A stretch of 64,000 nt of DNA, taken from NCBI GenBank assembly GCA_050084515.1, contig CM114271.1:5084001-5148000 (forward strand), read 5' to 3'. The notes beneath the pieces are model-generated. The model was not told where the DNA came from, searched no databases, and was given only the letters and a program-made list of their open reading frames with translations. The first letter of the stretch is position 1; the number at the start of each line of letters is the position of its first letter. Position numbers and translations under genes: made by a program. Source of the DNA: Blasia pusilla. Lineage: Eukaryota. Of the stretch, positions 28,346-64,000 are shown in pieces.

Positions 28346-30890
28346 ATGGTCCAGAGGTTAGAACCCGAGTCCAACTGGGAACCAACATGCTATTCCTTTT
28401 GTGCTTTGGGACAATTCGAGAAGCAGGTAGGATGTTCTGTGGACTTTAGGAAGGCCTTCGCGACTTGTAGCCTTCGAAAATCCGAGTTTACATCGCCTGT
28501 CCATTCACCTTGATACATCATGTTGATCGATTGTCGATTTCCAGTGGAGTTTGTTTCTCATTTTATCAGTTTTTTTAATTCACATCATGGAGCTCTTTTC
28601 GTGTTAGAAGAAGTCTAAAGCCTTGCCCTGGCATGGCCATCGAGTTGGGTGAGCTAGAATTTTCGTCAGACCTAAATTGAGTTTGTCTTGTTGGATGCTC
28701 TGCGGATTAGTGCTCTCAGCTTGTGACTCCCTGTGCTCATTAATTGCCAATTTTGTTATCGCAGCTCAAGCAGATGGCCTCCAGATTCTCTGCAGGGGCT
28801 TTGTACAGACACTGTCGACCGGCTTGCACGCAAGTGTCGAGGCATGATTTGCCTAATGGCAATCCCGTCGTGCATCCTTCTTGCGATGAAAATCAAAGTC
28901 CACAATTCTCGTTGAAGAGCTACAAGATGGACGCCCATAGTCCCGTTCGTTATAACCCAGGAGCAACGCCTGAGAATAACGCGGCTTACAAGCGTGCGCC
29001 GTTGAGAAATGTTAGAATCCTGCAGCGGAATCTCTCGGATACGGCTTTGAGCGATGATGGATCGATGCGTGGAACAGCAAGTCCTGTTATCAAGGCGGTG
29101 GACAGTGAGTGGGTTGCACAAGTTGAACCAGGAGTTTACATCACATTTGTTTCATCTTCGGACGGATTTAACGACCTGAAGAGGATCAAGTTCAGGTCAG
29201 CTCCTTACCTCGACCTGTCTAATCGCCTTGATAGATGTGAATCCTCTGTTAGAATCCCTTTCACCACGATTGGCTGGAAAACTCTTGCGTCTAAACACTT
29301 CTATGTACAGACATTTTTCAACCAATTCCTGTAAGCTTTTTCCAACTGAGGAAGTTCTAATATTTTAGCCCCACGGTATAGAAGCCGTATTAAATTAGCA
29401 TGAGTGGGTCGCATTAGAGTGTTTATGGTCAGTAGTTGTTTTTATGAACAAGGTGACGTTTCGAGGATCGGCGAAGAGTATATTCCATGTTTTTTCATAT
29501 CAGTCTTCTGCGTGTGATTGTGCAGCCGCAATATCTTCAGCAAACAACAAGCTGAAGGCTGGTGGACTCAAAACTGTACGTTGGTACGGGAGTTATACAA
29601 CGTTCGTCCGCCGTCCTCGACCGCCGACGAAGATGTAAGTGGCCTCTTCGTTCTGCGCTCTTACCTCACACGGCAGCCTGCTGCTCGAGGTTATGTACCT
29701 CGCAAGTATCATATGGACTTGTCATGCCTAGTCTTTCTTGAAGGGTTACATCTTGTACCTTCTTGAACTCCGAGGTGACTCAGCTGATTTCGTTCTGAGA
29801 AAGGAACCGACAATGTTCTTTTATTGGAATTTTGCACGTCCCTTCTACTCTCACTCTCAATGGATTTCGGCAAGCTTCGAAATTCTGGCCACTCGCATTC
29901 CTGCAAGTCGACATTTTGAGTGCTTCCACCGGTGCACTTTGACTCCTTGGTGAAGTTCACTTAGGAGGCAAAGTGTTGGATCGCCGATAACGTGCGATTC
30001 AACACGATATTGAATCATTGGAAAGTGTCTCTTTGTTACTACTGACTCGTGTAAGTATGAAAATTTGGGTTCGTCTGATTACGAAGTCGCTCCTACATGC
30101 CGAGATGCAGTTTGCTCCCCACTTAAAAATTTCTTACGTTTTCATGCTGGAGCACTAACATAGACGATGCCGTTATGATGAGTCGAAGCGTGAGAATCTA
30201 CGTTGGAGTCAGCATTCTGACATCTTGAATTTTCAATGGAGCAGCGTTTTTCCTCTGGTTACGCTACTCCAGATGCCTACAGCACAAGAAGTCCTTGCCA
30301 ATCGCTGAATGGAGACTATTCACTCACTAGGAAGAAGTCTACGGCGGATACGCGGAGCAACGGTTCCCAAAGAAGTGACTATGGAAATAGCGAGTGGGTT
30401 GAACAAGATGAGCCCGGGGTGTATCTTACCATCATATATGTTCCAGGCGTTGGCAAACAGCTCAGACGAGTGCGATTCAGGTTATTCCTCCCCTCATCTC
30501 TCACGTAAACTGATAGTCTTTACCTGCCCAACCTTTCCCTCTGCACATGTTATCATTGATTGTGTTAAAGGGACCATCCCTCAGTCAACGGAGGATGATT
30601 TCCTTAGGCAATTTACCTTGGAGCTAGAAGGAATATTCACGTCTCCTTAGTCCGATATCACTCATTGAACAGGTCTTTACAGAGGTCCACGAGTGGTCGA
30701 ATAGCGGGGTACAATTATTCCAAATCATTGCTGAAGCTTATGTGGTATTGTTCTGATCCCATCTTTGTATCGTGGGTGATACAGCCGAGAGAAATATTCT
30801 GAGTCAGAAGCGACGGCATGGTGGGGGCAAAACCGCCAAAGGGTATACTCACAATATATCGGTAAAATGTCAGCGTTTCAGGGCAAATAG
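28346..30890 (+). CDS. BRXL: BREVIS RADIX-like protein with two BRX domains; exons 28346-28426 (tentative), 28765-29195, 29526-29634, 30245-30480, 30785-30890
   Basis: LKQMASRFSAGALYRHCRP (BRX N-terminal motif); EWVAQVEPGVYITF..NDLKRIKFSRNIFSKQQAEGWWTQN; EWVEQDEPGVYLTI..KQLRRVRFSREKYSESEATAWWGQNRQRVYSQY. GT-AG introns preserve the frame. The first exon is least certain. Confidence 0.92.
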
Positions 30891-33800: not shown

Positions 33801-35788
33801 GGACTCTGATGGATGGAAGGGACTACACGGACTGATGTAACTTGTGCCTTATGCAATGGTAAAGGGAAGAAAAGGGTATTAATATGCGGAGATTGCCATC
33901 TTCGATTTCCAAAGTCACCGTTGCCTACCTATCTTCTTGAAGATATAGTGTATAGATAAGATACAAATGCAAGTTACACGAGCACATTATCTTCGTTTAT
34001 ACTAGTGAAATGGACTGCAAAGTACTTGTAATGAACATTGTGAATGACACATTTAAAATTGGCTAAGAGTTTAAAACATGAGAAGGTGCATTATGGATTG
34101 AATTAATGTGTTGTAAGTGTGAGCAAAAGGATCATTAGTTGAATAAATCATACATATATCAACAATGTATACCTTTGAATTGTTGTACGCAGGTGGCAAG
34201 CATGGATTTGAGTAAAAATATTCTCACTATGAAAGTAATAGGTGGTAAATAGCAAAAAGAAAAATTGCATATGAGTGAGATTGGAAATGATTTTATGTGT
34301 ACATGTGCAGTGCAAAAAGTAAGTTGGATAAGGTAAAGAGCAACATGAAATTTTATGACGGAGTTTGAAATGAAACATTCAATGTAAATAAATCAAAGAA
34401 AATAAAAGTGGGTGGTGATCACAATGATTGTAAAAGTATGCTCACAAAGACACTTTTGCACCCAAGTTTGAGTGTTGTTGGTAGAGACCTTATGAAAATA
34501 TGCCCAAAAAAATCCTGGGAGAAACAAAAATTGCTAGAAGTTATAGGAAGACAACTTGAAAATCTTCAAGTGTACGTGAAGTAGGTAAAGAGAGCATTAT
34601 ATGACCCTTTCCTAATCAAATACATTAGATGTTACTCCATCTTCTATGGTAATCACTTCACCCTCTACAGTCACGAAACATGGATTGAATCAAATCTAAC
34701 TGAAGTGACAACTTTTGGACTATTTTCTAGTAGAGGATGTATGTGCTTTTCAAAATAAAAAATCTGATCTCTTACCTGTTTTAATTGCTTCTTAATTCAC
34801 TCAACTCGGAATACTAATCCTGGTTATCCTCTAGTGCAAAATTAACTTCTGTAAAGCTTGGAACAATTAAACAAGAATTGGTTAGATGTTTAAAGTTTGA
34901 TTTGAAACAAGACTGTAAAGACAGTAGAACATACATCATGAATTGCATGAAAAAGTATGCAATACAATGGTAAACACATTGGATTCTTGTGTTTCATTGA
35001 GTGGATATATCAAACACTAAATTATGAAATGCAATAAGAAAGAGAATTTAAGAAAAAATGAATATATAATTTAGTATGTGGAAAAGGTAAACTTAAAATA
35101 TTTGATAAAATATTGAATGATGTGCACAGAGGTATAAATGAGTGAAAATTATACACTTGTATTAAGTATATGTATTGTAGTATGAGAGTTCGAAAAAATA
35201 ATAGATATATATATATATAAGAATATATGCCTAAGAAAGCATATATGAACTGAAAAACCATCATAGTCATGTCTATAACTAAAAGGAATGCTTTGAAAAT
35301 CTATGGAAAGCATATGGGAATATAAAAAGTGTCCAAAAGAGAGCCAAAAGTGGGAAGTAACGTTGTGAAAATGTTGAAGGCATATGCCAAAAGGAAGAGC
35401 ATCATGGTGACGTCCACAACTGCACAAAAACCATGTGATGATCAAGAACATACAACAATATCAAAACTCAACATGGAGAGCATGGAAAAAATTGAACATA
35501 TTTAAAATGGAATAGCTAATGACATAATATCTATACTTGGATTTGGAAAGAGTCCTAAATGAACTAGGCACACTTTCGTTTGTTTGGTGACCCGATAAGA
35601 AGGTTTGGCTCAAAGCTATCCTTTGGGACAATGGGTATGGCTAGAACTTCTTCTAGGCTTTGTGAAGTTTGAGGGAAGGAAGAGGTAGTAGCATGTGTAT
35701 TGCCATTTCTAGGAGTTGATGAGACAACGATAACATCCTCAAAATCAAGAAACAAGGAGGTTATTGGTGATTTTCTAGGTCAATAGGA

Positions 35789-36304
35789 TGTCACGTCTTT
35801 TAGGATAGATCGGTGAGATCTAGTAGAGCGCCTTCGTGAGTAGTGGAGGACAGGCTTAGTAGGTCGAGGATGACCTGATGAGGCCCCGAGAAACCTGAGA
35901 GAGCAGGTTTTCCCTTCGATTCGGCTCATTTGGAGCCATGTTGAAGAACTTACTATTTTAGATAAGTACCATTTTGAGTATATGATCGAATTATTATTTT
36001 TGGTAAGTGGCCCTTGACCTCCTACATCAGGTCAAGAGCCAAGGTATGACTTGGGAGAATAGGTTACCATGGAGAGAGCTTAGAGAGGGGAGGGGTATAC
36101 CTCAAGGAAAGAGAGTTTGAGAGCTCATTCTTTCTTTGTTGAACCTCTTGGCATGAGGCGTCGGAGATATGGTCTTGCTTGCCTTGTGTGTGTAACCAAA
36201 GCCTCTCATTAGGAGAGTGGGTTTGGTTTGACATTGAGAGAGACATGTGAGAGTGCACACATGTGAGAACTATGGTGTTGTGAGAGAGATTGGATCTTAC
36301 GTTA
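35789..36304 (+). repeat. Terminal repeat A1
   Basis: Direct repeat of 45571-46089. Followed by a GA-rich tract, not by B or a TGG primer-binding site. Confidence 0.9.
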
Positions 36305-38189
36305 CAAAGAGAGAAAAAGAGAAAGAGAGAGTGAGAGAGTGAGAGAGTGAGAGAGCTTCATGGGGGAGCTCACTTGTCACTCGTTTTTTTCCAGTTTAGG
36401 GACTGTTTTCCCCATTCAACGGCTCATGGGAGTGCTCACCGGAGCAAGGGCTGATTTGATTGTTCTTTGCATTTGTCGATTTTTCGTGTGGAAGAGTGGT
36501 GCGCAGAAGCGCTCCCCAATTTTTGATAGGGATTGATTATGGGGGCGGGTTGCCCCATGCCGGTGCTCTCGAGAGCACCATGTAGCTTTCTGATTTGTAT
36601 TTTTACAGGTTTTACATTTTGGTTGGGAGAAATTAGCGCGGAAGGGCTGCCAAATTTTGTGTAGGAGAAAGAGACATTGGGCTTTACGACAATCCCCATC
36701 AGTTTTTACTGGAATGTCCAATTCCAAATATTTTTTTGACGCTGTTGTAGATCGTGAATCTATGCACGTTGTGCAAAAACAGTGCACAATTTGGAGTTGT
36801 GAGTAAAAAGTTATGGTCAATCTTGAAAAATTGCCATTGCTAGGTGATTTTTAGGGTTAAATTGTTCAAACCCTAAACTAGTTGCCACGCTGGCGGCGGC
36901 TGTCACCTTCATAGTCATCGTCACCGGTAAATGGTCAACATCACCATCAACGGTCTATCATCATCATCAACGGTCAACCATCACCGTCAATGGTCCACCG
37001 TCCGCTGGCCACCGTTGGCCGTTGCTGTTGCCCAGCGTTGCTCAAAGCCGCATTCGGCCGTTGTCCACCCTTTGGTTGCCATTGCCGCCATTACAGAGTG
37101 GAGGGTCTTCCACGACGTTTGTTGATTCTCTGACTTGCGTCGCCACCATGTACTTTGTTTTGGCCGCCACCGTCATCGAAGTTTTGTCGTCAACCAGTGA
37201 CGGTAGATGACCTCCAATTATGGTTTTTGAGTTTTTATTTCATGCTGCTATGTTGTGATTGGTAGCTGCTCCACGATGATCGAGTACCGTGCTATGACGC
37301 TCGTAGCTGCAATGCGCCGCCGATTGCCGCGCCGTGCCGTCTTGATCCCGGAGTCACACGTCATTGGGGACCAGAGTGTGGGTTTATTGTTGATTAAGGA
37401 GGGTATGGCGCCAAGTGCCACATCCCACCATCGGGGGCCGTGCCATTTGTAGCCATTCTGTGCCGCCTGCAATGCCGCACTGTTCCGCTGGAACTGCACT
37501 GACTACTGAGGAGTTTTGAGCAGCATTAGTACGAGAGGAGTATGACTTGCTGATTGGAGGATTTGTCTCCACGATCGAGTTGGGGTTGAGATTTGCAGTT
37601 GTTGAGGAGCGACATCGACATGTGTTCAGGTTACCCATTCTGGTCCTTTACCCTGCACGCGTGAGGGATTCTGGGATTTGGGTAGTTAATTTGGGGATAT
37701 TGGGTTGTGTGGATGCTGAGAGCATCATTTATGTATGTGGTTTAGGGCACATAGACATGTGTGGGATGTCCGGAGTTGAGGGTAGGTTGTCGATGAGATG
37801 ATAGCCTGGTCGATTTTCCGCACCACGCCGCTTGTTGCCGCACGTTACACGTCTCGGGGAGGGAGAGTGTAGATGAGTGCTCCATGTTTGGGATGAGTGA
37901 TTGAAGGATTAATCGCGAGGTTGAGAGTGATCGTGTGAGAGGGGCACGAGGGCCATCACGGCGTCCTTTCAGGATTTTGAGAGGCGAGGTAGTGGACTTG
38001 AGAGTAGCTCTGGAGGGTTTACCTGGAGTGGTGCGAGGTTTTGAGGGTCTCCATATGAGAGATCACCTCGATCTCCTTCTATATCATCTTCAAATGAGGG
38101 GGAGCGTGTAGGGGAGTTTGTGAGCACATCGCCACACATTGTGACCGGTCCTACCAGTTGGGCGTACGAGATGGACGATCGGGGTAGAG

Positions 38190-39612
38190 GACCGCGTAGG
38201 TTTTCAAGTGTAGTAGGCACGATTGAGTTGCACAATTTCATAGCAGAGTTTAGGAGTTGATGCGACTCCCAGCGAGCCAAGAACTCTAGAGAGGTCAACC
38301 CGTTTACAACATGGAACGGTATGTTCTAGCATTTAGAGGGGGCGCCCATGGACGATTACCATGAGTTCTCTTAGAGATATGCACGTGAGATCGAGGCGCG
38401 GAGGCTCTACTATGACCCACATTATATGTCATGGACACAACCGTTCTCAGATGAAGAGGAGGAGTTAGTAGAGGCTACTTCCTCTTCCACTAGTGACATT
38501 TTAGGAGGGGTCACTCGCACGGGAGCAGTTGCACCGTCTAGTCGGGTTCGTCCTAGGTTCAACCCTCTAGTTGAGTTCTTTGCTGAGTTGAGGGCAAGCT
38601 ACCAGGGGTATGGACGGAGAAGTTGCAGAGCATCCACGACTTCCAAAGGCGCCCGGGTGAGAGCTTGCGTGAGGCTTACACTCGCTTGCGCCGATTGATC
38701 AACGTCACTCAAGGGGTGACAGAGGCTCAGACTATCCAGTCATGGTACGCGATGATGGACCGGACCCTGCGCACACGGGTGCGGGAGGGGGTGCTTCTTA
38801 TGAACAACTCCCCTATGTTGAGAGATGTTTTTAGGACCGCCAAGAACATTGAGCGCAACATGGCGGAGGAGAGCGTAGCCACCATGGGTTCTGGGCGAGA
38901 GCTGTCACGATTTCCTGCACTACCTGTGCAGCAACGTGGACTACGAGATAGGTCGAGTGTGGCACCACGAGCTCAAGGAGGATACCGGGGGGCCGTGCCA
39001 CAGAGACCTACGCCTTCATATGCGGCTCAACAACAACCGCCTACTATTACTTGTTGGTCATGTGGTGAAGCCCATCATCAGCGTGATTGCACTCGTCAGG
39101 GTCATGGATATGTGCCTCAATATGGAGGAGGAGATGGTGCTGCACTAGGAGGTTATCAATGTGACTATTGTCAGAGGTATGGTCATACACGCGCCAGGTG
39201 TTTCAGTTTACATCTTGAGTTACGTCCGGACCGAGGGCCAGAGAGGGCACCAGAGCGAGTAGTCAGTCCGGGTGGGCCTAGAGAGCGTGCACCAGGTTGT
39301 CCCGTTGGGGGACGAGGAGCTGGAGTTGCCCCACATGATGGTGGAGTTGCCCATGGAGGAGGTAGAGTACCACCACCTAGACGCGCTGAGGGAGACGTTG
39401 GATGTGAGGCTGGGATGGCTGCTCAGATATCGCAGCTACAAGAGCAGATTTGCCGTTATGGCATTGAGGTTACCGATGCCGGATCCGTGGCATTGACATC
39501 ATATGGAGCAGCCAGAGATCTGCAAGATTGTGGTTGGATGTGCGGGGTTGCCCATATGGAGGCAACCGTAGTTGTGGCGCGTGGAGCAGCCGTAGAGTTG
39601 GATCCACAATGA
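38190..39612 (+). pseudogene. gag: gag with two CCHC zinc knuckles
   Basis: FQRRPGESLREAYTRLRRL (retrotransposon gag), CWSCGEAHHQRDC, CDYCQRYGHTRARC. In-frame stops upstream. Confidence 0.85.
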
Positions 39613-40079
39613 GGGAAAGCCAAGAAACAGACTAGGCTTCCTCAGTCTTTCATGTTGTCCGAGGCAATGAGGACCCCATCGATGGGTCCTGATTAGAGTT
39701 TGTGGAGAGTTGGTGATGTTGTTGGTATGCATGCACGGAGGGCGATGGGAGAAGCGAGTGCAACGACTCCTATTGTTGATGTTCAGAAGGGGCATGTGTC
39801 GAGCATGTTTTTGGAGGCGGCCACCATTGTGTACCACCCTCCTTTATTTTTTGCTTCCGATGTGATGACATTGGGGGATACGCCCGCGGAGGCTTTTCGG
39901 CTGGCCGCTACTCTACGTGGGCGTGGAGTTGGAGTTCTTGCATCACATTCAAAGATGATTGCAGAGGAGTTATGGACATGCCCTTGGAGCGGATGCTCAG
40001 GCCGTCCACGTCAGATTTATGGCAAGCTGCGGCTGCTAGGATGGCGGAGATGCCCGCTAGACCCGCAATAGAGCATGCC

Positions 40080-40500
40080 ATGGCTTCTCCTGGTGTTGTG
40101 TTGTTGGATAACCGAGGAGAGGTCTTCCACTTGGTGAGTCCCGGAGGTAGAGCTTTTAGTCCGCAACGCGTCTTGTTGGATTCAAGAGCACAACCCTTGA
40201 TGTTGGTGATAACGTCATTCAGAGGATTGGGCTTGATGAGAGCCGATGTGGAGCGTTTTCCATTCCGGATATAGACATCCTTGGGTGGAGCGAGTACCAC
40301 ACAGTATATCACCCGACAAGAGGTCGTGGTGAGGATTCGCCCGGGACATCCTACAGATGAGTCCGTGGCGCGAGCCAAGGCAATAGTGATTGATGCACGA
40401 GTCCTACGACGTCTTGGTTGGTGGAGCAGTGTTATACCCGATGGGGTTTTCCCTGGATTACTGGGAGGAGTCAGCATCCTACAGACTAGGATGGTAGTCA
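40080..40500 (+). pseudogene. Retropepsin-like aspartic protease
   Basis: RVLLDSRAQPLML (D-S-G motif with G>R), in the expected position after gag. Confidence 0.7.
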
Positions 40501-40889
40501 AATGATGGGCGCCTTAGCTCATTACCCGTTCGATTCACAGGTGCAGTGATCGAGCGACGGCCAAGAGAGGTGGCGACCTTAGCAGCATTTAGCAGTGCCA
40601 TCACGTTGCCTAGTGATTTGATTGAGGGACATGTCCATGCAGACGATACTCCCGTTCCTAAAATTTCTATGGAGAGGAGTGTTATGGTAGCCGCATCATT
40701 CCGTGGAGGAGAGGTGCCGTTGTGGGGCTCGACTGAGGAGCTTCGACGATTGGCAGATGAGCACGTGCATATCACGTGGAGCGAGGCGTTTGCACCGGAG
40801 CGTGACGGGTCTGAGGAACCGAGGTAGCAGGGAGTGCTACGATGACACCCTTGGATACCACACCCATTGTGTGGTGTATCCCGGAGGAG

Positions 40890-41850
40890 GGTATTTGAGT
40901 GTTAGATCTCTTTGGAGGGATTAGCACCGGGTTAGCTGATGTTTTGCAGGCAGGAGTGCGAGTGTAGCAGTACCTGTAAGTGGATAGTGATGATGTTGCG
41001 AGGCCCATCTCACTACGACATGTGGCGCAGTTATGCCTATGTTTTCCCGACTTATTGTCTCCGTCCGTGGTATAGGAATACCAGAGTTCCCTATCGAGGG
41101 ATATTTCGTTGCTGGGGGCGCAGGACTTAGACCGGTTAGGCACCATTGATTTGGTCATTGCCGGTTGGCCATGTCAAGGCCAATCGAGTGCTGGACGAGG
41201 CAGTGGGTTGGCTAACACTTGGTCCATGTTGTTTTGGGAGATGTTGAGGGTCTTACGACAGTTGCAGGAGCACCAGTCTCGTTCTCTAGCCTACATTCTG
41301 GAGAATGTGCCAATCTTAGGAGACTCGAGGTCACGGGTGGTGACGAGTGCTCATCACGTGCGTGCCTGGATCGGCCCAACAGTGTTCTTGGATGCGGTGA
41401 GTGTAGGTTCTAGAGCCCATCGCCCGCATCTATGGTGGACCAACTTGGTGCCCCATGCGGTGTTACGAAGGGCGTATGCGAGAGTGGAGCGCCCCTCCCG
41501 TTTGTTAGTGGATTCCATTCTGGATCCAGGTCGTCGCTCACACGCAATGAGGCAAGATGATCGACCACCATTGATTTTGGTCAACAGGGTAGGCAAGCCG
41601 CGGGCAACCTTTCCCACGTTTGTGAGTTTTCCGCTTCCTATGTATACAAGGAGGCCGGTCCTGGCTTGGTTTGGGATGACCAAGTTCAGAGGTTGGTGGA
41701 GCCCAACGTCGACGAGAGAGAGCAGGCGATGGGATTTCCCACACGAGTGACGGAAATACCGTCAGTATTAGAGGTGTCACGACGCCATGTCTTGGGTCAG
41801 GCGATGGACCTGAACTAATTGACATGGATCTTCAGCTTGGGACTGGCTTA
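40890..41850 (+). pseudogene. DNMT3-like C5 DNA cytosine methyltransferase domain inside pol
   Basis: Motif I VLDLFGGISTGL (40899). Motif IV DLVIAGWPCQG (catalytic Cys 41172). Motif VI LENV (41301). Motif VIII region FLDAVSVGSRAHRPHLWWTNL. After a 1-nt frameshift at about 41633, motifs IX/X EREQAMGFP..SRRHVLGQAMD. Several in-frame stops. Confidence 0.93.
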
Positions 41851-42202
41851 GCAACGTCGGATGAGATCTCGACAGATCACAGCGGTTGCGTTGGTGAGCC
41901 CCATGCCTATCGAGACGATGGAGGCAGTGGCTAGGGGCAAGACCTGAGGAGATCTACACACCATGGGAGATCTAGAGAGACACCCTTGGACTTCTTGGGA
42001 TGTTTTGTAGGTACGCCAGGAGATGATAGCCACAACATCGAGCGTGGTTCCGGGCACTGCACATGGAGGAGATCAGAGTTTGCAGTTGCCTGTAGAAGAG
42101 CCGCCGAGTGTTGTTGTTCGAGACGGGGTTGCACCATAGCAACCACCGATACCTGCGTCGGAGAGTCCTACCGTAGTCACGATGGAGACTTGAGATCCAG
42201 AT

Positions 42203-43630
42203 ATGGGCCCTAAGTTGACAGGAGGAGAGCAGCGCCGAATACATTTGTTCCTCACGAGTTATAGGAGCTACTTTGTGTTTAGCATGGAGGATTTGGGTAT
42301 GCTAAAGGGACCAGGGATCCGCATTGAGTTGTCGAGTGATACGCCGATCTTCCAAAGACCCTACAGGTACAGTGATATGGAGAGGGCTCTGATTGAGAGT
42401 AGGAGCCAGGACTTGGTTGGAGCACGACTAGTGGAGATGTCGCATGGGGAGTATGCATCTGCCACTGTCATGCTCGCCAAGAAGGATGTACATGGCAACT
42501 GGACGGATAGGCGGATGTGTGGAGATTATCGACCTATCAATCGGCAGATAAAGTTCGATAGGTATGCCATGCCCACCGCTGAGGAGATCTTTGATGCAAT
42601 TGGTCACGCAAAGGTCTTTAGTTCATTCGATTTGCAAGCCGGATACCATCAACTGCCTATCAGATTGGAGGACAGGCAGAAGACGGCATTTTGGGGCATC
42701 GATCCTCATGGGAAGGATTATTTGTACCAGTGGCAGTTCTTACCATTTGGGTTAAAGAACGTCCCGGCTGAGTTTCACAGGGTCATGGATAGGATCTTCG
42801 CTGGTATGGATTTTGCTAGGTGTTATATTGATGATATTGTATTCTTTAGCGCCACGATTGAGGAGCATGAGCGACATCTAGAGGAGGTGTTTTGATGATT
42901 GCAATTACATGGGTTGAAGCTACATCCAAGCAAGTGCAAGTTCTTCTACGGCCATATTGAGTACTTGGGTCATACGATATACCCAGAGGGCTTTGGTGTT
43001 TAGGAGAAGAAGGTAAAGGCTATCTCACGCATTCCACGCCCTATAGATGTGAGCCGTGTTCGCGCATTCATGGGATTGCAAACTTTTATCAAACGGTACG
43101 TCAAGGGATTCAGTTTGATTGCGAAGCCGTTGACCTTGCTAACCAAGGTGGATCACGAGTGGCACCGGGGGGATGAGTAGGAGCGAGCATTTCAATTGCT
43201 CAAGGACAAGTTGACGTGTGGGCCCATCTTGAGGAGATCGATCAAGGGTCATCCTTTCCAGTTGCACACAGATTGGAGTATGTTGGGGCTTGGAGCGGTG
43301 CTCACCCAGATGATGATGAGCGTAGAGAGTTCGTGGTGGCTTACGCTAGCCGCTCGAACAACACTGCAGAGGCAAAATACAGCTCGTATGAGGGTGAGTG
43401 CTTGGCTGCAGGGTGGGCTGTCTCACATTTCAGGTGTTACTTATTGGGCAACCCCTTTACCATCATCACTGATCATCAACCACTGAAGTGGTTGATGGAG
43501 TCCAACAAGCTTACAGGGAAGCTTGCGAGATGGGCTCTGTTGTTGCAAGAGTATGATTTTCAGGTGGTACAGAGATCTAGGACGCTCAACCAAGATGCAG
43601 ATGGGTTGAGTCGTAACCCATGCCCGAGTC
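42203..43630 (+). pseudogene. pol: Ty3/gypsy reverse transcriptase and RNase H
   Basis: RMCGDYRPIN, FDLQAGYHQ, LPFGLKN, YIDD (about 42824). RNase H: LHTDWS..LGAVL, EGECLA, TDHQPL, DADGLSR. Stops and frameshifts present. Confidence 0.95.
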
Positions 43631-43971
43631 AGCGAGATGCGATTAGAGCTCGATGGCATGGAGAGAGTGATGAGGAGTCCGTGCCAGGATGGCACGCGTC
43701 AGCCTATTTAGGCATGTTGGCTATGGAGAGCCAGAGTGTGGAGACTTCGATGGCGAGGTCTAGTGGAGAGTCCTTGGATCCCGAGGCCAGTGAGGAGACC
43801 ACAGGTGGTCGAGATATTCATGATGACGGAGTAGTCTTGGAGTACCTTCGTACTGGTAGCGTTGCAAGCACCGTGGGTGCTAGAGAGCGGGATCGGATCC
43901 TACAACGGGCTAGACGGTTCCGGTAGGAGGGAACACATGTTCTGAGGGTTTGGGAGGATGGTAGAGTACGT

Positions 43972-45060
43972 GTGGTGCCGCATCCTTTGCAGAGAGCACG
44001 AATAGTGCAGCATGCCCACGAGGAGTTGGGTCACTTTGGGGTGAAGCGGACGTACAACTTGCTCCAGATTCAGTATTGGTGGCGAGGCATGCAGATTGAC
44101 GTTCAACAGTTTGTTGCTAGGTGCATGGTGTGTGATGGGGTCCGAGCATTGTTCAATGCTTCGACTCCACAATTGCATCCATTACCGATCATGGGCTTAG
44201 GTTATAGATGGAGTTTGGATTTCGCACGACCTTTGAACTTTGACGGAGCATCACAGTCGTTATATGTTGGTGATGGTCGAGCACTTCTCGAAGTGGATCG
44301 AGTTGGTTGCATTGCCTGAAAAAGCGAGTGAGGGAGTAGCTTATGCCTTCCTTGACAGAGTGCTGAGTCATTATGGCGCACCGGCTGAGGTGTTGACAGA
44401 CAAGGGTACCGAGTTTCACGGTGAGTTCCAGGCCTTGTGTGATCAGGCGCTGATCGGCCACCGCACGACTTCGCGAGATCATCCTGAGGCGGATGGATTA
44501 GCGGAGAGAGTTGTGCAGACGATGAAGAGGGGTTTACGCAAGTAAGGCTTGCAAAGAGGTCACCTAGGAGATTGGGACCTCCAGTTGCCATGGTTGGCGA
44601 TGGGATACAGATTTAGCAGGCATGCATCCTTAGCGTTTTTTTCACCTTACTTGCTACTTTATGGCCGAGAGCTAGATTTACTTGCGGCCATTGGTCGAGA
44701 TGCAGGTGAGGTGCTGGACCTTGATGACCCAGATGTATGGATGCGAGCATGTTCTCATAGGGCTGAGTTGTTTTGGAGAGTGATGCCCATGGCGTTTGAG
44801 AACTTGGCGATTGCGCAACATCGGGATACGTTGAGGTATGCGACTATTCGGGGTGGTGGTTATCGACCAAATATCCGGAGGTTTCATCAGGGAGATTATA
44901 TCTACTTGCAGCAGACGGCATCGACGACGTTGGATGTGACTGCAGGGCGCACTATCCTGAGACTCCGTGACGTTTTGCCATCTGGTGTTGTCTTGCTAGA
45001 GGGACGCGATGGTATGGTATGGAAGGACCATGTGCATAATTGTGCGCCATGTCACCTTCC
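43972..45060 (+). pseudogene. DDE (rve) integrase
   Basis: HHCC finger HEELGH..CMVC. Catalytic SLDF, LTDKGTEF, GLAERVVQTMK. Confidence 0.93.
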
Positions 45061-45109
45061 TAACATTGATGGTACAGTAGATCCGAGCTTAGAAGAAGTT
45101 CTTGCAGGC

Positions 45110-45256
45110 TGGCATTATATGTTGTGTGGTTCTGCCCGTGGTACGACCACGATACTAATATGTGATGGATGTTTGAGAGGTTGGCATATGGCATGTGTGA
45201 CGCCATCTCTTAGTAGGGTTCTTTGGGGACGATGGATGTGTCCCAGATGTATATAG
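45110..45256 (+). pseudogene. PHD finger at the integrase C-terminus
   Basis: YMLCGS..ILICDGCLRGWHMACVTPSLSRVLWGRWMCPRC matches C4HC3 PHD spacing (first Cys>Tyr). In frame with the integrase and ends at the pol stop. Confidence 0.88.
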
Positions 45257-45440
45257 AGGAGATACTAGGTAGGTTTCAATTTCGACTTTTTTTGTGACGT
45301 GGATGATAGGAAGGCGACTAACGATGGGGCCATATGAGCACCCGACCTTTTGCTCTTAGTGTTCTAGAGATGTATGTCATGGTAGGTAGGGATAGATGGC
45401 TATCTGGAGTTAGAGGGACCTAACCACCAACTAGGGGGCG

Positions 45441-46215
45441 ATTGGAGATATTTTAATACTTCTTGTCTCGTTGTTTGGATGCCATGAGTTAGCATGGGAT
45501 CGTGGGTGTTTGTATGTGTGTTCGGTGACAACGATGTATGTTGTGTAGCAATGTGTATGCGCACGACAACTGTCACATTTTTTAGGATAGATCGGTAAGA
45601 TCTAGTAGAGCGTCTTTGTGAGTAGTGGAGGACATGCTCAGTAGGTCGAGGATGACTTGTTGAGGCCCCGGGAAACTTGAGAGATTAGGTTTTTCCCTTT
45701 GTTTCGGCTCATTTGGAGCCATGTTGAAGAACTTACTATTTTAGGTAAGTACTATTTTGAATATGTGATCGACTTTTTATTTTTGGTAATTGGCCCTTGA
45801 CCTCCTACATCAGGTCAAGAGCCAATGAGGTGACTTGGGAGAATAGGTTACCATGGAGAGAGCTTGGGAGAGGGGAGGGATATACCTCAAGGAGAGAGAG
45901 CTTGAGAGCTCATTCTCTCTTTGTTGAACCTCTTGGCATGAGGCGTCGGAGATATGGTCTTGCTTGCCTTGTGTGTGTAACCCAAGCCTCTCATTAGGAG
46001 AGTGGGTTTGGTTTGACATTGAGAGAGACATGTGAGAGTGCACACATGTGAGAACTATGATGTTGTAAGAGAGATTGGATCTTACTTTATTGGAGATATT
46101 TTAGTACTTCTTGTCTCGTTGTTTGGATGCCATGAGTTAGCATGGGATCGTGCGTGTTTGTGTGTGTGTTCGGTGATAGCGATGGTATTATGTAGCGATA
46201 TATATGCGCACGACA
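45441..46215 (+). repeat. 3' block B1-(ac)-A2-B2
   Basis: B1 45441-45568 repeats as B2 46089-46215. Junction gcacgaCA-ac-TGtcac at 45561-45576. Confidence 0.9.
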
Positions 46216-46588: not shown

Positions 46589-47224
46589 TGTCACATATTT
46601 TAGGATAGATCGACGAGATCTAGTAGAGAGCCTTTGCAAGTAGTGGAGGACAACCTCAAGAGGTTTAGGATGACCTACTTTTGCCACGTATAACCTGAGC
46701 AGGTTTCCCCTTCGTTTCGACTCATTTGGAGCCAAATAGAAAAAACTTACTATTTTGAGTAAGTTTCCACATTGAGTAAAGTTGACTTTAAATTTTTAGA
46801 AGTGACCCGCTATAATAGGTCAAGAGCCAAGGAGGTGACTTGCGAGCATAGATTACCGTGGAGAGAGCTTGGGAGAGGGAAGGGGATATACCTCCAAGAG
46901 AGAGAAAGAGAGTTTGAGAGCTCATTCTCTCTTTATTGAACCTCTTCGCATGAGACGGCGGAGCTATGGTCCTCCTTGCCGTGTGTGTGTAACCCAAGCC
47001 TCTCATTAGGAGAGTGGTTTTTTTTCACTTGAGATAGAGAGAGATCGAGTATGCACATTTATGAGACCTTATTGATGGAGAGATCCACTTGATTTAATTA
47101 GAGATATTTTGGTACTTCTCCTCTCGTTATGTGGATTCCAAGAGTTAGCATGTGATCGTGTGTGTTTGTATGTGAATTCGGTCACAACGATGTATGTTGT
47201 GTAGCGATGTGTATGCACACGACA
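46589..47224 (+). mobile_element. Solo A+B terminal unit, subfamily 1 (diverged)
   Basis: tgtcac...acgaca, colinear with 45571-46215. TSD not clearly preserved (tcgt/tgat). Confidence 0.8.
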
Positions 47225-48774: not shown

Positions 48775-50660
48775 TTTCATGATTTTTAGGATAGATCGGA
48801 GAGATCTAGTAGAGCGCCTTCAAAGATATTGGAGAATAGCTCAAGAGGTCGAGGATGACCTTCTGAGGCCACGGGTAACCTGAGAGAGTAGGTTTCCTAA
48901 GTTTCTCCAAATAGAGAAACTTACTATTTTGAGTAAGTTTCTATTTGGAGTATAGTTGACTTTATACTTTTGGAAGTGGCATTTGACCCGCTACAGGAGG
49001 TCAAGAGGCAAGGAGGTGACATGCGAGCATAAGTTATCGAGGAGAGAGCTTGGGAGAGGGAAGGGGGTATATCTCGAAGAGAGAGAGCTTGAGAGATTTA
49101 CAAAGAGAGAATAAGAGAGTGAGAAAGTTTCAATGGAGGACCTCACTGGTCACTTGCTATTGGTGCAGGTTGGGAATTGTGGTCCCCGTTCAATGGCTCA
49201 TGGGAGTGCTCAGTGGAGCAAGGGTGCCTTTGGATGTGCTGTGCGATTGCCGATTTTTTGTGTGGAAGAGTGGCGCGCGGAAGCGCTGCCCAATTTTTTA
49301 TAAGGATTGAGTATGGGGCGGGTTGCTCCATTCTAGTGCTCTTGGGAGCACAATGTAGCTTTCTGGTTTTTTTGTTTACAAGTTTGAAGTTTTTGTTGGG
49401 AGAAATCAGCGTGGAAGCGCTGCCAAATTTTGTGTAGGAGAAGAGACGTGGGCTACACGACAATCCCCGTCAGTTTTTATTGGAAGGTTGAATGAAGAAT
49501 CCAATTAAATGAGGTCATACATCGGAAAGTTGTGCACATTGTGGAAGAAACAATATGCAATTTTGAGTTTGGAGCAGAAAGTTGTGGTTGATTGAGCAAG
49601 CTGCCATAGCCACCATGCTACCGTGTGAGTGAAATTTCCAATATTCCTTGGTAATTTCTTGAGTGGTAGAGAAAAATAAAAAAAATCATTGTTACCTTGG
49701 TGGATAGGACAAGGGCACCGGCCCTTGGAAGTAGAAGTTGAGTGGAAAAATTATTTGAGGAGAGTTGACCCACCAATTATGGAGAATGAGTCAATTTGTA
49801 AATTTGTCAGAAGGGGGCAGTCAAGTTAAGCAATTTTAGTTGAGACCCAGTTTTCCCGCGGTGTATTTTAGTAAGAAGACAAAATTTGGTGGGGGGGGGG
49901 GAGCCGCATCCTCTTCCGGGGATGCCGCATTGCCACTGTGAGTGGGGTTGCGCTGCCGTTGTCAACTCTAAACCCTACGTCACTACCTTTAAGCTTCCGC
50001 CTTTGCTGTTCCGTCTAAGCCAGCTGCTGTCAACGTCGGACCAGTTGTTGTAGCCGCTTGACTCTTGTTACTTATTTTAATAAATGGGGCTATTTTGTGG
50101 TCCGACTGAGCCTCTGTCTCCCAACACCCTTCACCATTCCGGAGGGCAAGTGACCTTTAAGGATTGGTGGGGTCCGAGTATTCATCATGCTTTGCTATGT
50201 CGTGATTTGTAGCCGCTCATTGACAATCAAGTACTTTGCCGTGATGCCCGTAGCCGCAATGCGTCGCCAATTTTTGGGCCATGCCGCTCGTGGCCGCACT
50301 GTCTCGATCACGGAGCCGCATCATCATTGTGGAGCAGATTATGTTTTTTTGATTGAGGAGGATATGCCGTTGAGTGCCGCACCCCATTTCTAAGTGCCAT
50401 GTCGTCTGTAGCCGTTACGTGCCGCACCGTACCGCTGGACCTGCACCGCACATCGAGCAGATTTGAGCATCATCAATACCAGAGGAGTACGACTTGCTGC
50501 TTGGAGGAGTAGTCTTCACAACCGAGTTGGGGTCAAAGTTTTTCAGTTGCTGAGGAGCGACATCGACACTTGTTGTTAGGTTATCCATTTTGGTCATTTG
50601 CCCCATACGTGTTAGGGATTTTTGGGTATTGGGAAGTTATTTTGGATAGTCTCACAAGAT
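48775..50660 (+). mobile_element. 5' fragment (partly deleted A1 plus leader) of a subfamily-1 element
   Basis: Homologous to 35789 to about 37700. A is followed directly by the ttacaaagagaga leader. Confidence 0.8.
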
Positions 50661-52599
50661 CCGCGTACGTCTCTGGGATGTGAGGCATACGAAAGAGGGC
50701 CTTTTCGGCACTCGGTTTGAGCCCACTTAGGAAGATCACCTTTTTTGTATGTTCGTCCATGGAAAGTGCACTCATGAGTGCACTAAAATCTCGCACATAA
50801 GCGCCAAGTGATCCACTCTGGCGCAACCTCACCACCTCCATCCCATCACGATACTCTTGATATTCCGGAGTGAATCAGTTCCCAATCAACTCCTTGAAAT
50901 CTTCCCAACTCAACATTTTCCCACGACCTAGATGTTCTTTACGGTGAGCCGTCCACCAATGGAGAGCATGATCCTTCAGAAACGTGACCGCTCTGATCAC
51001 TTTGTCTTGTTAAATCCGCCTTTGCGCCGAAATAAAGTTCGAGTTTTGTTAGAAACTCGCTCACTTTCCGAGAACGCCCCATTCTTGTGAATGGCGTTGG
51101 AAAATTAGTCTTACAAAGCTTCTTGCCAGAACTAGAGGCTCCATTTGACTTGAATTCCGGTATCACCTTGCTCTGTTCGGCCATCTGGTCCGCCATCACC
51201 TTCATCAATCCCATCATTTGGATATAAAAGGCCGGATCGTTTAAGTTTGGACCCGAAGGTCCCGCGGAAAGATTTTCGGTTGGAACATCCTCATGTCTGG
51301 GACTCGGCACTTCGGGAGTCGCAAATTCCACCTCTGGCTCTCGGTCCGTCATTGATTCGTCTCTCGGCTTCTTTGCTTTGACTCGCGGTTTCCTCGGTTC
51401 TTCGCCTTTGGTCGCCATTTGCGAGTCGTCACTTTCTCAGATCTCCTCCTCGCCTCTTGCATTCCTCCTCGGCATCGCGATCTTTCGGCTACCTTGAATT
51501 CTCCCCAAACGTCCAGATCTTTAACGCCCCCAAGTTCACGCTCATCAAGGAATTGCTCTGATACCACGTGTCGTGCACCTACTCTCCTTGAACGTTAATC
51601 TTGTTTGTTGCGGAAGCGTGCGTTCAGTAGATCACGCTCTCAACGCTGATCTGCATCCAAACACGCATTTTGGTTAGTCGGGTCTTGGATCAATCAGCGG
51701 GATTACTTTCCGAGTTCTTGTCTCGGACTCTCATCAAGCTCAACCTTCCTAGTTTCGCGGTTTACAACACGGGAAAATCTCGAAAGACTTGGGACAGACT
51801 TTCTGGTCGGTTCAGGAACCTGAAACGGCGTTTCGCGCCTAGCGGTTCCAACTGTCCGATGGACATCCAATGAGTTCCTCACCAAGACTCGCACGAAGTG
51901 AATCTCAGGTTGGAATCCAAGTGTGGCGTACAAAGTCCACTCCCTTGGATTAGGTTTGGGTTTCGGGTTTCCGCGCCAAACTCCGGTTCCATCCCGTGCC
52001 TCTGAAACGCCGTTTGGCGCCCAAAGTGGGGATTCGTTTCCCGAGACATCTCGGAGAGGGTGCTCCCTTACTAGTACTTCTGGGGATCTCCGGGGGCCCC
52101 CTACATTTAGGGAAAGACACCCGGGCCTCTCCAATTGGCCCTCAACCTGATTGCTCTCTCAATCGTTTTCGGCCAATATCTCAGTTTGTACTTATGTGTT
52201 TGCTAAGATCTTTAGTGCGTTGGAAGCGTCTCAAGATCAGCTTTCCAACGCGCCCTTAGTTGTCCCAAACGCATCTTGGAGCTCAACGTTATGGTCCTAA
52301 ACACAGTCAGATTCTCCTAAACGCTAGTCGTGTTCCAAATTGGTTCTCACCTCTTTGGCAACCAACCTCCCAAGACTCAACTCATCTCAAGTCTCGGCTC
52401 GCGTTTGGTCTAGGTTTCCTGGTTGCGACCACTAACGCATGAAACGCACAACTCTATTCCGTGTTTCGTCTCTTAGACTTTTCCAAGAGACTCTTCCAAA
52501 CGCCTCTCCAAAGCGCAAACCTCGCAGCGTGAGTTCCTTTGAGTTCTGACATTTCGCTTGGCGCCTATTTGGTGTTGTTTGGTTATGAGGGTCGCGACA
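50660..52599 (-). mobile_element. Conventional gypsy (chromovirus family) 5' fragment: LTR 51569-52599, tRNA-iMet PBS, truncated gag
   Basis: TG...CA LTR of 1031 bp. PBS TGGTATCAGAGC on the minus strand at 51555-51566. gag peptides VSEFLTKLELYF and LRQSGSLGAYVRDF..FLSGLKP. Confidence 0.88.
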
Positions 52600-61620: not shown

Positions 61621-61778
61621 TCTCCTTTTTCAATACAAAATTATTATGTATAATCTCCATTCTCTCACGATAGGTATCACAAATGGAATTGCCGAGGCAA
61701 TCACTTCTTCGTAACATCGGATCTTGAAATTCCTAACTATAAAATCCCTATAAAATATTTTACGCTTGTACACGAGGA

Positions 61779-64000
61779 TATCACGTCTTTTAGGATAGAT
61801 CGTGGGATCTAATAGAGCGCCTTCATGAGTAGTGGAGGACACGCCCAGTAGGTCGAGGGTGACTCTTTGAGGCTCTTGAAACCCGAGATAGCGAGGTTTC
61901 CCCTTCGTTTCGGCTCATTTGGAGCCATTTTGAGGAACTTACTATTTTAGGTAAGTACCATTTTGAGTATATGATCGACTTAATATTTTTGGTAAGTGGC
62001 CCTTGACCTCCTACATCAGGTCAAGAGCCAAGGAGGTGACTTGGGAGAATAGGTTACCATGGAGAGAGCTTGGGAGAGGAGAGGGGTATACCTCAAGGAG
62101 AGAGAGCTTGAGAGCTCATTCTCTCTTTGTTGAACCTCTTGGCATGAGGCACGGAGCTATGGTACCTTGCCTTGTGAGTGTAACCCAAGCCTCTCATTAG
62201 GAGAGTGGGTTTGGTTTGACATGAGAGAGAGTGCACACCTTTGAGAGCTATGGTGTGAGATGGTGGAGAGAGAGATTGGATCTTACTTTACAAAGAGAGA
62301 ATGAGAGAATGAGAGAGTGAGAGAGCTTCATGGGGGAGCTCACTGGTCACTCCCTGTTTTTGCAGGTTGGGACCGTGTTCCCCGTTCAGCGGCTCATGGG
62401 AGTGCTCACCGGAGCAAGGGCTGCTTTCATTACTCTTTGCATTTGCCGATTTTTCGTTTGGAAGAGTGGCGCGCGGAAGCGCTGCCCAATTTCTGATAGG
62501 GATTGAGTATGAGGGCAGGTTGCCCCATGCTGGTGCTCTCGGGAGCACCATGTAGCTTGCTGATATGTATTTTTACAGATGTTACATTTTCGTTGGGAGA
62601 AATCAGCGCGGGAGCGCTGCGGAATTTTGTGTAGGAGAAAGAGACATTGGGCTTTACGACAATCCCTGTCAGGTTTTACTGAAATGTCCAATTCTAAATA
62701 TTTTTTGATGGTAGCGTAGATCGTGAAGCTGTGCACGCTGTGCAACAAACAATACACAATTTGGAGTTGCGAGCAAAACGTTATGGGCAATCTTGTAAAG
62801 CTGCCATTGCTAGGTGATTTTTAGGGTTAAATCGTGCAAACCCTAAATCAGCCGCCACACCGGCGGCGGCCGTCGCCATCATAGTCACCGTCAACGGTCG
62901 ATGGTCAACCATCACCGTCAATGGTCAACCGTCACAATCAACGGTCAACCGTCACCATCATCGGTCGGCCGTCACCATCAACGGTCAACCGTCACTGTCA
63001 AAGGTCCACCATCCATTGTCCACCCTTTGGGTGCCATTGCCGCCATTACGGAGTGGAGGGTCTTCCATGACATTCGTTGATTCTTTGACTTGCGTCGCCA
63101 CCACATACTTTGTTTTGGCCGCCACCGTCATCGCAGTTTCTTCATCAACCAGTGAAGGCAGATGACCTCTGGTTATGGTGTTTGAGTTTTGATTTCATGC
63201 TTCTATGTTGTGATTGGTAGCCGCTCGCGACGATCGAGTATCGTGCCGTGACGCCCGTAGCCGCAACACGCCGCCGATTGCCACGCCGTGCCGCTCGTGG
63301 CCGCACCGCACCATCTCGATCGCGGAGCCGCACCGTCATTGTGGAGCGAGTGTGGGATTATTATTGATTGAGGAGGGTATGCGCCGAGTGCCGCATCCCA
63401 CCATCGAGGGCCGCGTCTTTGTTCGTCGAGCCGCCTGCGTCGCCGCAACGCCGCACCGTTCGCCGGGACCGCACTTTGTCTATCGAGGAGTTTTGAGCGC
63501 ATCGATGGAGGAGGAGTATGACTTGCTGATTGGAGGAGTTGTCTCCACGATCGAGTTGGGGTCGAGATTTGCGATTCTTGCCGAGGAGCGACATCGACAT
63601 GTGTTCAGTTACCCATTCGGTCCTTTACCCTACACGTGTGAGGGATTCGGGATTTATTTGGGGATATTGGGTGTGTGGATCGAGAGCATCATTTATGTAT
63701 GTGGTTTAGGGGACATAGACTTGTGTGGGATGTCCGGAGTTGAGGGTAGGTTGTCGATGAGATGATAGCCTGGTCGATTTGCCGCACCACGCCGCGTGTT
63801 ACCGCACGTTACACGTCTCGGGGAGAGAGAGTGTAGATCGAGTGCCGCATGTTTGGGATGAGTGATTGAGGGATTCCTCACGAGGTTGAGTGATCGGGTG
63901 AGAGGGGCACGAGGGTCATCACGAGTCTATTCGGGACTTTGAGAGGCGAGGTGGTGAACCCGAGAGTAGCTCTAGAGGTTTTACGCGGATTGGCGCGAGG
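61779..64000 (+). mobile_element. 5' end (A1 61779 to about 62291, plus leader) of another subfamily-1 element, running off the window
   Basis: Colinear with 35789 to about 38040. A1 is again followed directly by the leader, without B. Confidence 0.9.

Follow-up and report, generated by a model that had tools for sequence, protein, structure and literature searches.

The window analysed here is a stretch of 64,000 nucleotides from Blasia pusilla (GenBank assembly GCA_050084515.1, contig CM114271.1, positions 5,084,001 to 5,148,000 of the forward strand), and all positions given below are counted from its first letter. The window contains a decayed transposable element at 35789–46215 (+). Judging from its domains, the element is a Ty3/Gypsy-type retrotransposon in which a DNMT3-like DNA methyltransferase (DNMT) follows gag and the protease and precedes the reverse transcriptase (RT). 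The original prediction for this DNA, which was made from the letters, had placed the methyltransferase between the protease and RT, and the domain order mapped using Pfam and tblastn is the same.

A C5 cytosine methyltransferase domain is encoded at 40887–41833 (+), as seen in a three-frame reading of 38300–46200. Motif I (GI*VLDLFGGISTGL) starts at about 40887 in the frame of 38301. The same frame encodes motif IV (GTIDLVIAGWPCQG / DLVIAGWPCQG), the segment LFWEMLRVL, motif VI (YILENV), and motif VIII (VFLDAVSVGSRAHRPHLWWTNL / LDAVSVGSRAHRPHLWWTNL). Past a frame change near 41609–41669, motifs IX and X (EPNVDEREQAMGFP and RHVLGQAMDLN) are located in the frame of 38300 and end at 41815. The segments that had been quoted, and the linear order of motifs I, IV, VI, VIII, IX, and X that had been claimed, are present in the window letters, with this single frame change inside the domain. 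Motif VIII of the window copy has the form R-P-H; most relatives have RxR at this position. With stops read as X, the domain stretch matches PF00145, the absence of which the original prediction had regarded as disproof, with a score of 41.2 bits (E 1.8e-10; curated cut-off 22). In BLASTP searches, the domain stretch is matched by 41 database proteins at 35–64% identity, with E values down to 1e-110, and the 224-residue open piece of the domain is also matched by 41 database proteins (E down to 1.7e-70). Because of the PF00145 score and the 41 matching proteins, the resemblance to methyltransferases is, at the level of sequence, far beyond chance.

The domain can be classified by comparison to known enzymes as a DNMT3-type, non-permuted, and intronless C5 methyltransferase. 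A family profile constructed from eleven relatives was searched against all solved structures (PDB), and the highest-scoring proteins were DNMT3A (79.8 bits, E 1.3e-21), DNMT3C (73.4 bits), and DNMT3B (71.4 bits). Weaker matches were obtained for DRM (47–36 bits), DNMT2 (31 bits), and bacterial enzymes (29–26 bits), and no DNMT1 or chromomethylase chains are among the 52 PDB matches to the profile. DRM chains match the profile via motifs I–IV only. The match is confined to the C-terminal half of the DRM chains, in line with the permuted motif order of DRM, a permutation that is absent from the window family. The structure model of the relative P0004 has a mean predicted local distance difference test score (pLDDT) of 62, with values of 80–90 in the catalytic core and below 50 in the target-recognition region. 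The best 50 fold matches of this model are all DNMT3A or DNMT3B, with template modelling scores on the target of 0.70–0.76 for chains containing only the catalytic domain and 0.37–0.52 for longer chains. In the fold alignment, the identity to human DNMT3A/B is about 20–22%. Since both the PDB profile scores and the fold matches favour DNMT3A/B, the earlier description of the domain as DNMT3-like and not circularly permuted in the manner of DRM appears to be correct.

The methyltransferase of the element shares its catalytic fold and motifs with host DNMT3A/B and with plant DNMT3/DRM, the best matches being DNMT3A/B/C. Animal DNMT3A and DNMT3B carry PWWP and ADD reader domains positioned N-terminal to the catalytic domain. 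Unlike host DNMT3A/B, the domain of the window element is embedded in a polyprotein and lacks PWWP and ADD, and unlike plant DRM it is not permuted. Neither a PWWP nor an ADD family was found by Pfam in nine open reading frame (ORF) pieces of the window or in the eight relatives scanned, which agrees with the claim that no such domains are visible. DNMT3s without companion domains have been reported from protists and algae (PMC12344493).

The window copy is a pseudogene that cannot make the enzyme and that decayed after its insertion. Five stops (40896, 40965, 40977, 41073, and 41816) interrupt the methyltransferase region, which also changes frame once between 41609 and 41669. Compared with the Marchantia protein P0012, the gag-protease-DNMT frame has five frame changes and 15 stops. 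The second frame, which contains RT, has two frame changes and at least eight stops when compared with the intact relative L075. Taken over its full length, the element contains more than 20 stops and about seven changes of frame. No enzyme can be produced from this copy because of the five stops and the frame change within the domain and the more than 20 stops across the element. The terminal repeats A1 and A2, described below, are 93.4% identical over 516 aligned bases, with 24 transitions and 10 transversions, which corresponds to a Kimura two-parameter distance of 0.0695. If plant substitution rates between 5e-9 and 1.3e-8 per site and year are assumed, the insertion is roughly 3–7 million years old.

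The gag region at 38186–39972 (+) was delineated by a tblastn match to residues 9–573 of P0012. It is decayed, 39–45% identical to P0012, and split over two frames with five stops. Two CCHC knuckles located near 39070–39200 are visible as the motifs CWSCGEAHHQRDC and CDYCQRYGHTRARC. The aspartic protease region at 40005–40400 (+) has a 40% match to residues 665–772 of ORF1 of L075. The active-site triplet of the protease is DSR in the window and DSG in L075. Pfam gives no match for the window protease piece, even at E values up to 1, and the Asp_protease_2 scores of the intact relatives P0021 and L075 (22.4–22.7 bits) are just below the cut-off of 24.3. Downstream of the methyltransferase, RT and RNase H are encoded at 42149–43734 (+), with scores of 70.7 bits for RVT_1 and 93.9 bits for RT_RNaseH. 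This region is decayed, containing stops and a frame change, and is 57–67% identical to the relatives. The integrase at 43927–45060 (+) is composed of an H2C2 zinc-binding domain and a DDE core (Integrase_H2C2, 62.9 bits; rve, 42.8 bits) and is 65% identical to residues 698–1034 of ORF2 of L075. A PHD finger (PF00628, 34.3 bits) forms the C-terminus of the integrase at 45122–45250 (+).

The element starts with the terminal repeat A1 (35789–36304 (+)), which resembles a long terminal repeat (LTR) and begins with TGTCAC. The second terminal repeat, A2, was identified by comparison with A1 and is located at 45571–46089 (+). A 128-base unit, B, is present on both sides of A2. The upstream copy, B1 (45441–45568 (+)), adjoins A2 and is 91.3% identical to B2 (46089–46215 (+)), which terminates with ...CGACA and forms the 3′ end of the element, where the likeness among three copies stops. 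The repeats are therefore arranged in the layout A-coding-B-A-B and not as two equal LTRs. The B-A-B order recurs at 19452–18079 (−). The sequence between A1 and gag (36305–38185 (+)) is an unusually long leader of about 1.9 kb, the first part of which is a GA-rich simple repeat. The leader is 84% alike in a second 5′ copy at 61775–64000, and no protein matches were found upstream of 38186.

The element has TG...CA ends and is preceded by AGGA (35785–35788 (+)), a candidate target-site duplication, of which three out of four bases are the same as in the AGGG after the CA end. The TG...CA ends and the 4-base duplication, imperfect here and perfect (CATT/CATT) around the internally deleted relative at 19764–18079, are consistent with insertion by a DDE integrase and with B2 being the true 3′ end. 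The tyrosine recombinase that is a trait of DIRS elements was not found; rve and Integrase_H2C2 domains and target duplications are present instead, and the likeness to DIRS is limited to the repeat layout. No primer-binding site of the initiator-tRNA type is located beside A1, and the window contains four matches to such a site versus five expected by chance. A perfect match to the initiator-tRNA probe at 51555–51566 (−) is probably part of a different LTR element located at 50–52 kb. The junction between B1 and A2 has the form CA-NN-TG, with CA AC TG at 45566–45575 and CA GT TG at 19330–19320. It corresponds to both element ends joined with two extra bases between them, which is reminiscent of a circle junction, and it may have a bearing on how the A-B-A-B layout is copied.

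The gag-protease-DNMT frame of the window element is closed by the stop TAG CAA CCA at 42137–42145 (+), and the same site is occupied by a stop in relatives. L075 and L076, two intact loci from metagenomes, have a gag-protease-DNMT frame of up to 1369 codons and, beyond a single TAG and in the same phase, a frame of 1047 codons that encodes RT-RNaseH-integrase-PHD. The stop contexts of these two loci are TAG CAG TTA in L075 and TAG CAA TCA in L076. Among 21 Sphagnum-like loci, 20 have TAG or TAA followed by CAA CCC or CAA CCT in the homologous place, and the frame is continued beyond it. Three ORFs from Marchantia, P0012, P0014, and P0010, terminate in the region of the conserved stop.

In plant viruses, UAG-CARYYA has been described as the signal for type I readthrough (PMC5382211). 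The arrangement in the window element and its relatives is similar to that of tobamoviruses in that UAG is followed by CAA CCA (window), CAG TTA (L075), or CAA TCA (L076), and a polymerase is encoded downstream (PMC5382211). It differs from the viral signal as reported there in its retrotransposon context and in that the Sphagnum-like copies have CAA CCC, which matches the signal in five of six positions (PMC5382211). The UAG-CAR-YYN stop before RT thus looks like a signal for programmed readthrough. In the clade of the window element, the methyltransferase is the last domain of the gag-protease-DNMT frame, and hence would be made together with Gag. High expression of the methyltransferase relative to RT is predicted, because the domain ends the Gag-protease frame at a leaky-looking stop. 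The proposal that the enzyme was packaged with RT can be refined in this respect: packaging still fits, and the methyltransferase closes the Gag-protease frame, so that a minority of the molecules would be fused to RT.

The family to which the element belongs is large. A scan with the family profile, in which one protein was counted per cluster of 50% identity, detected 10181 proteins at E ≤ 1e-3, 2549 at E ≤ 1e-10, and 514 at E ≤ 1e-30. The relatives that could be named are from Marchantia polymorpha, Calypogeia fissa, four Sphagnum species, and Scenedesmus. No Klebsormidium proteins were found by name among the relatives from word-based searches and the named matches of the profile scan. The word-based searches and the best 150 of the 10181 profile-scan proteins yielded members of the element family and no outgroup methyltransferases. 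Among 92 relatives that contain both domains, and which are not an unbiased sample, 80 have the order RT-RNaseH-DNMT-integrase and 12 have DNMT before RT. In a FastTree phylogeny of 111 full-length DNMT domains, from which 127 partial domains and 63 short DNMT-only proteins were left out, the two domain orders are on opposite sides of one branch with a support of 98. The window element groups with liverwort and Sphagnum rows (support 100). DNMT precedes RT in 29 rows of the tree, including Marchantia proteins and the intact L075.

The catalytic residues of the domain are conserved. Among 172 full-length relatives, the catalytic Cys is present in 170, the Glu of ENV in all 172, RxR in 168, and all five checked residues in 158. 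The original prediction had named loss of the Cys or of ENV from a family consensus as evidence against an enzyme; in the family, the Cys and the Glu of ENV are retained to the extent given by these counts. The Pro before the catalytic Cys is replaced by Glu (GWECQD) in 74 of the 172 relatives, and ENT or ENA frequently takes the place of ENV in motif VI. Most such variants are found in the group with the order RT-RNaseH-DNMT-integrase.

Selection on the domain was evaluated from the ratio of nonsynonymous to synonymous substitution rates (dN/dS). Among three intact loci, dN/dS of the DNMT core, calculated from 332 codons, is 0.14, 0.10, and 0.12. The values for the same loci are 0.06 in the second frame (ORF2) and 0.21 in the 284 codons just upstream of DNMT. 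In the least saturated pair, L074/L075, the numbers of differences at the three codon positions are 20/9/50, and shifted frames have dN/dS of 0.97 and 2.42. The values of 0.10–0.14, in comparison with those of the shifted frames of L074/L075, indicate that the methyltransferase domain of the intact relatives is under purifying selection. In the dN/dS comparison that had been suggested as a check of the prediction, the three intact loci thus have low values, and the set of decayed Sphagnum-like copies, considered below, is uninformative.

The PHD finger belongs to PF00628, matches to which are precomputed in nine out of 12 long relatives. The nearest solved PHD fingers are those of CHD4, DPF2/3, KDM5A/B, PHF21A, ATXR5, AIRE, BAZ2A/B, and UHRF1, and most of these read the unmodified histone H3 tail. 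Binding to unmodified H3K4 is predicted for the PHD finger of the element from these neighbours. PHD fingers in retrotransposons have been described as widespread (PMC6673714). The window element is similar to chromoviruses, Gypsy elements which have a chromatin-reading module, a chromodomain, at the integrase C-terminus that is thought to guide integration, and to CopiaMBD elements, in which a retrotransposon captured a module that reads chromatin or methylation (PMC6673714). Unlike the elements described there, the window element has a PHD finger as the reader and, in addition, DNMT as a writer (PMC6673714).

Transcription of the family was assessed from three RNA-seq runs of one study with the same species label, using reads of at least 88% likeness. 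Between 4631 and 4811 reads per run map to the element and cover all 30 element bins in all three runs, with a depth of 17–65 in the four DNMT bins. Reads with unlike flanks break at 35789, the start of A1, and the depth drops after 46142, near the 3′ end of the element. The first mate maps to the minus strand about 10–30 times more often than to the plus strand. In usual stranded libraries, a first mate on the minus strand corresponds to sense RNA. Related copies are transcribed in sense. The RNA comes from copies other than that in the window, because only 17–26 reads per run are at least 99% alike to the window copy. The sequencing-run index lists no RNA runs for the exact window stretch. 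From one DNA run, 265,900 contig pieces map to the element, and the family is therefore highly repeated. In all three RNA runs, about 45–116 reads match only 45105–45140 and 45406–45438, and continue on both sides into uniform unrelated sequence (agreement 0.87–1.0). An abundant transcript from elsewhere carries these two fragments.

A retrotransposon of this kind was published in 2018, and the window locus is a further example of it. KnitGypsy-Dnmt3 of Klebsormidium nitens, described by de Mendoza et al., contains an intronless, non-rearranged Dnmt3 in the Gypsy Pol, and has the A-coding-B-A-B layout of DIRS elements together with Gypsy domains (PMC5890265). The window element has the same type of domain in the coding region of a Gypsy element and the same layout, and purifying selection is common to both, with Ka/Ks below 0.2 reported for KnitGypsy-Dnmt3 and 0.10–0.14 calculated for the relatives of the window copy (PMC5890265). 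The two differ in that the window element is from a land-plant-type host and has relatives in liverworts and peat mosses, whereas the paper describes a Klebsormidium-lineage-specific acquisition (PMC5890265). Furthermore, the text of that paper, figures and supplements aside, mentions neither an in-frame leaky stop nor a PHD finger (PMC5890265). A paper from 2025 reports that some DNMT3s are located in retrotransposons of streptophytes and dinoflagellates (PMC12344493). Literature searches found no paper describing the family in bryophytes or in green algae/chlorophytes.

SymbioDIRS-Dnmt3 and SymbioLINE-Dnmt of Symbiodinium are also retrotransposons that encode a DNMT; the A-coding-B-A-B layout recurs in the DIRS elements, and two domain orders coexist in Symbiodinium, as in the family of the window element (PMC5890265). 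The Symbiodinium elements employ a tyrosine recombinase or an endonuclease, whereas the window element combines a DDE integrase with TG...CA ends and a target duplication of 4 bases (PMC5890265). The domains of the DIRS type from Symbiodinium were demonstrated to methylate CG in yeast, whereas the activity of the window family is a prediction (PMC5890265).

It is very probable that 35789–46215 is an old, inactivated copy of a DNMT3-carrying Ty3/Gypsy element of the KnitGypsy-Dnmt3 kind, and that the intact relatives function in the following way. Their genomic RNA would be translated, and most ribosomes would halt at the UAG, giving rise to Gag-protease-DNMT. A minority of ribosomes would pass the UAG and add RT-RNaseH-integrase-PHD. 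The methyltransferase, being fused to Gag, would enter the particle and would then be freed by the protease. It could methylate de novo either the new double-stranded cDNA or the DNA of the insertion site, and the PHD finger might steer the integrase to chromatin with a particular state of the histone H3 tail. Methylation of the cDNA or target site, here predicted for Gypsy-type members, is the same hypothesis as that of the 2018 paper, the authors of which proposed self-methylation of retrotranscribed DNA (PMC5890265). The window copy itself performs none of these steps.

Several points weigh against this explanation. The domain of the Klebsormidium element did not give rise to methylation in yeast, a result that its authors considered inconclusive (PMC5890265), and the likeness of the window element to KnitGypsy-Dnmt3 is drawn from the published description of that element (PMC5890265). 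Readthrough is suggested by the conservation and context of the stop, and in basal relatives, for example P0037, the frames are fused and the stop is absent. The primer-binding site of the initiator-tRNA type is not beside A1, and the explanation does not account for the A-B-A-B layout in an element with a DDE integrase. The structure model of P0004 is mediocre, as its mean and target-recognition pLDDT values indicate, and the DNMT tree, composed of members of the element family, has no outgroup root. The other copies from which the RNA reads originate may themselves be defective, and stops are present in 63 of 66 DNMT regions examined from metagenomes. Of these 66 regions, 20 are gapless, and 17 were retained after removal of L070, which is out of register, and of the near-duplicates L007 and L010. 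These 17 decayed Sphagnum-like copies have dN/dS of 0.36 on internal branches versus 0.46–0.63 in shifted frames, which says little. On terminal branches, the value of 0.65 versus 0.43–0.52 in shifted frames is too weak for use.

The main competing explanation concerns the target of the enzyme, which in the intact relatives might be host chromatin instead of the element's own cDNA. We regard this as possible, although doubtful. Such an enzyme might, for example, place gene-body-like CG marks on the body of the element or its neighbourhood, or might interfere with host silencing. A methyltransferase made at the level of Gag would be in excess over RT, and most of its molecules need not serve reverse transcription. 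The role of the enzyme is left open in the 2018 paper, according to which the copies in Klebsormidium are methylated at CHG and CHH sites in the manner of silent transposons (PMC5890265). However, the two possible targets are not separated by the sequence, and the fusion of the enzyme to Gag and protease points to its packaging into the particle. That linkage alone has kept the methyltransferase in the whole family, as neutral cargo or as a pseudo-enzyme, is improbable. The decay of 63 of the 66 genomic copies examined, the inactivity of the Klebsormidium domain in yeast (PMC5890265), and the Glu in place of Pro before the catalytic Cys in 74 of the 172 relatives count in favour of such cargo. 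These observations are opposed by the dN/dS of 0.10–0.14, which places the domain between the upstream gag-protease stretch (0.21) and ORF2 (0.06), and by the five catalytic residues kept in 158 of 172 relatives across more than 500 clusters.

An RNA methyltransferase that modifies the RNA of the element or a tRNA primer in the fashion of DNMT2 is more improbable still. DNMT2 chains are among the matches to the family profile in the PDB (31 bits), and no canonical primer-binding site was found, but DNMT3A/B/C outscore DNMT2 by 40–50 bits, DNMT3A/B account for all of the 50 best fold matches, and motif VIII has the AHRxR...W.NL form of the DNMT3A alignment. The idea that a fragment of a host DNMT3 came to be next to the transposon by chance, or was caught by a single copy, has next to no probability left. 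The same domain order, in one frame with the protease, is present in the 29 tree rows that include Marchantia and L075, and the order recurs in an older copy at 13421–10145 (−) of the window; chance adjacency is refuted by this recurrence.

The explanation of the window element as an inactivated copy of a DNMT3-carrying Gypsy lineage can be extended to a broader claim, which we put forward as speculative and consider unlikely in its full form: that DNMT-carrying Gypsy elements are not confined to Klebsormidium but form an old lineage, very large in size, that spans green plants and algae, with a clade of liverwort and peat moss elements (that of the window) in which a highly repeated and transcribed family makes the enzyme at the level of Gag by UAG readthrough, and that they represent an overlooked source of DNMT3 in bryophytes. 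The lineage would be large and old because the family profile detects at least 514 clusters at 50% identity and the two domain orders are parted on a single branch of the DNMT tree. If the claim were true, the elements would shape the methylomes of bryophytes as a source of de novo DNMT3. They pose the paradox of a transposon carrying the enzyme that hosts use for silencing transposons, and the PHD finger on the integrase would be a second chromatin module of the element. Marchantia, which has apparently open gag-protease-DNMT frames, offers a tractable system for studying what a transposon gains by methylating DNA. If the Marchantia copies are active, the target and purpose of the enzyme become testable in a genetic model plant. 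The window locus itself adds no function. Within the searchable literature, the details that may be new are at the level of the family, namely its spread, selection, stop design, and PHD finger.

The window is a nest of these elements. An internally deleted relative at 19764–18079 (−) consists of a partial A, the end of the coding region, and then B-A-B. A piece of about 600 bases is inserted in its A repeat, and the deleted relative as a whole is flanked by a perfect CATT/CATT 4-base duplication. A lone A-B unit at 46589–47224 (+) is positioned directly after the element and has no matching target duplication that could be seen; such a unit is as expected from recombination between A1 and A2 in another copy. 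L075 and L076 show no terminal repeats; their contigs seem to stop short of them. Further 5′ parts of the family are located at 61779–64000 (+) and 48784–50645 (+), with 84% and 71–78% identity, respectively, to 35789–38038.

The element at 13421–10145 (−) is much older and contains traces of DNMT, RT, RNase H, and integrase. Its protein identity to Marchantia P0005 is about 38%, its GC content is about 39%, and its CpG observed/expected ratio is 0.37. The catalytic motifs of its methyltransferase are mutated (LDLFRGI, ARCPCRG, and LNSV). A gag at 58928–57238 (−) is 41–62% identical to Marchantia P0012 and has no detectable methyltransferase adjoining it. The GC-richer region at 26–34 kb contains an ORF with a BRX domain (PF08381, 42 bits) at 28744–29331 (+), which is a fragment of a plant-type host gene.

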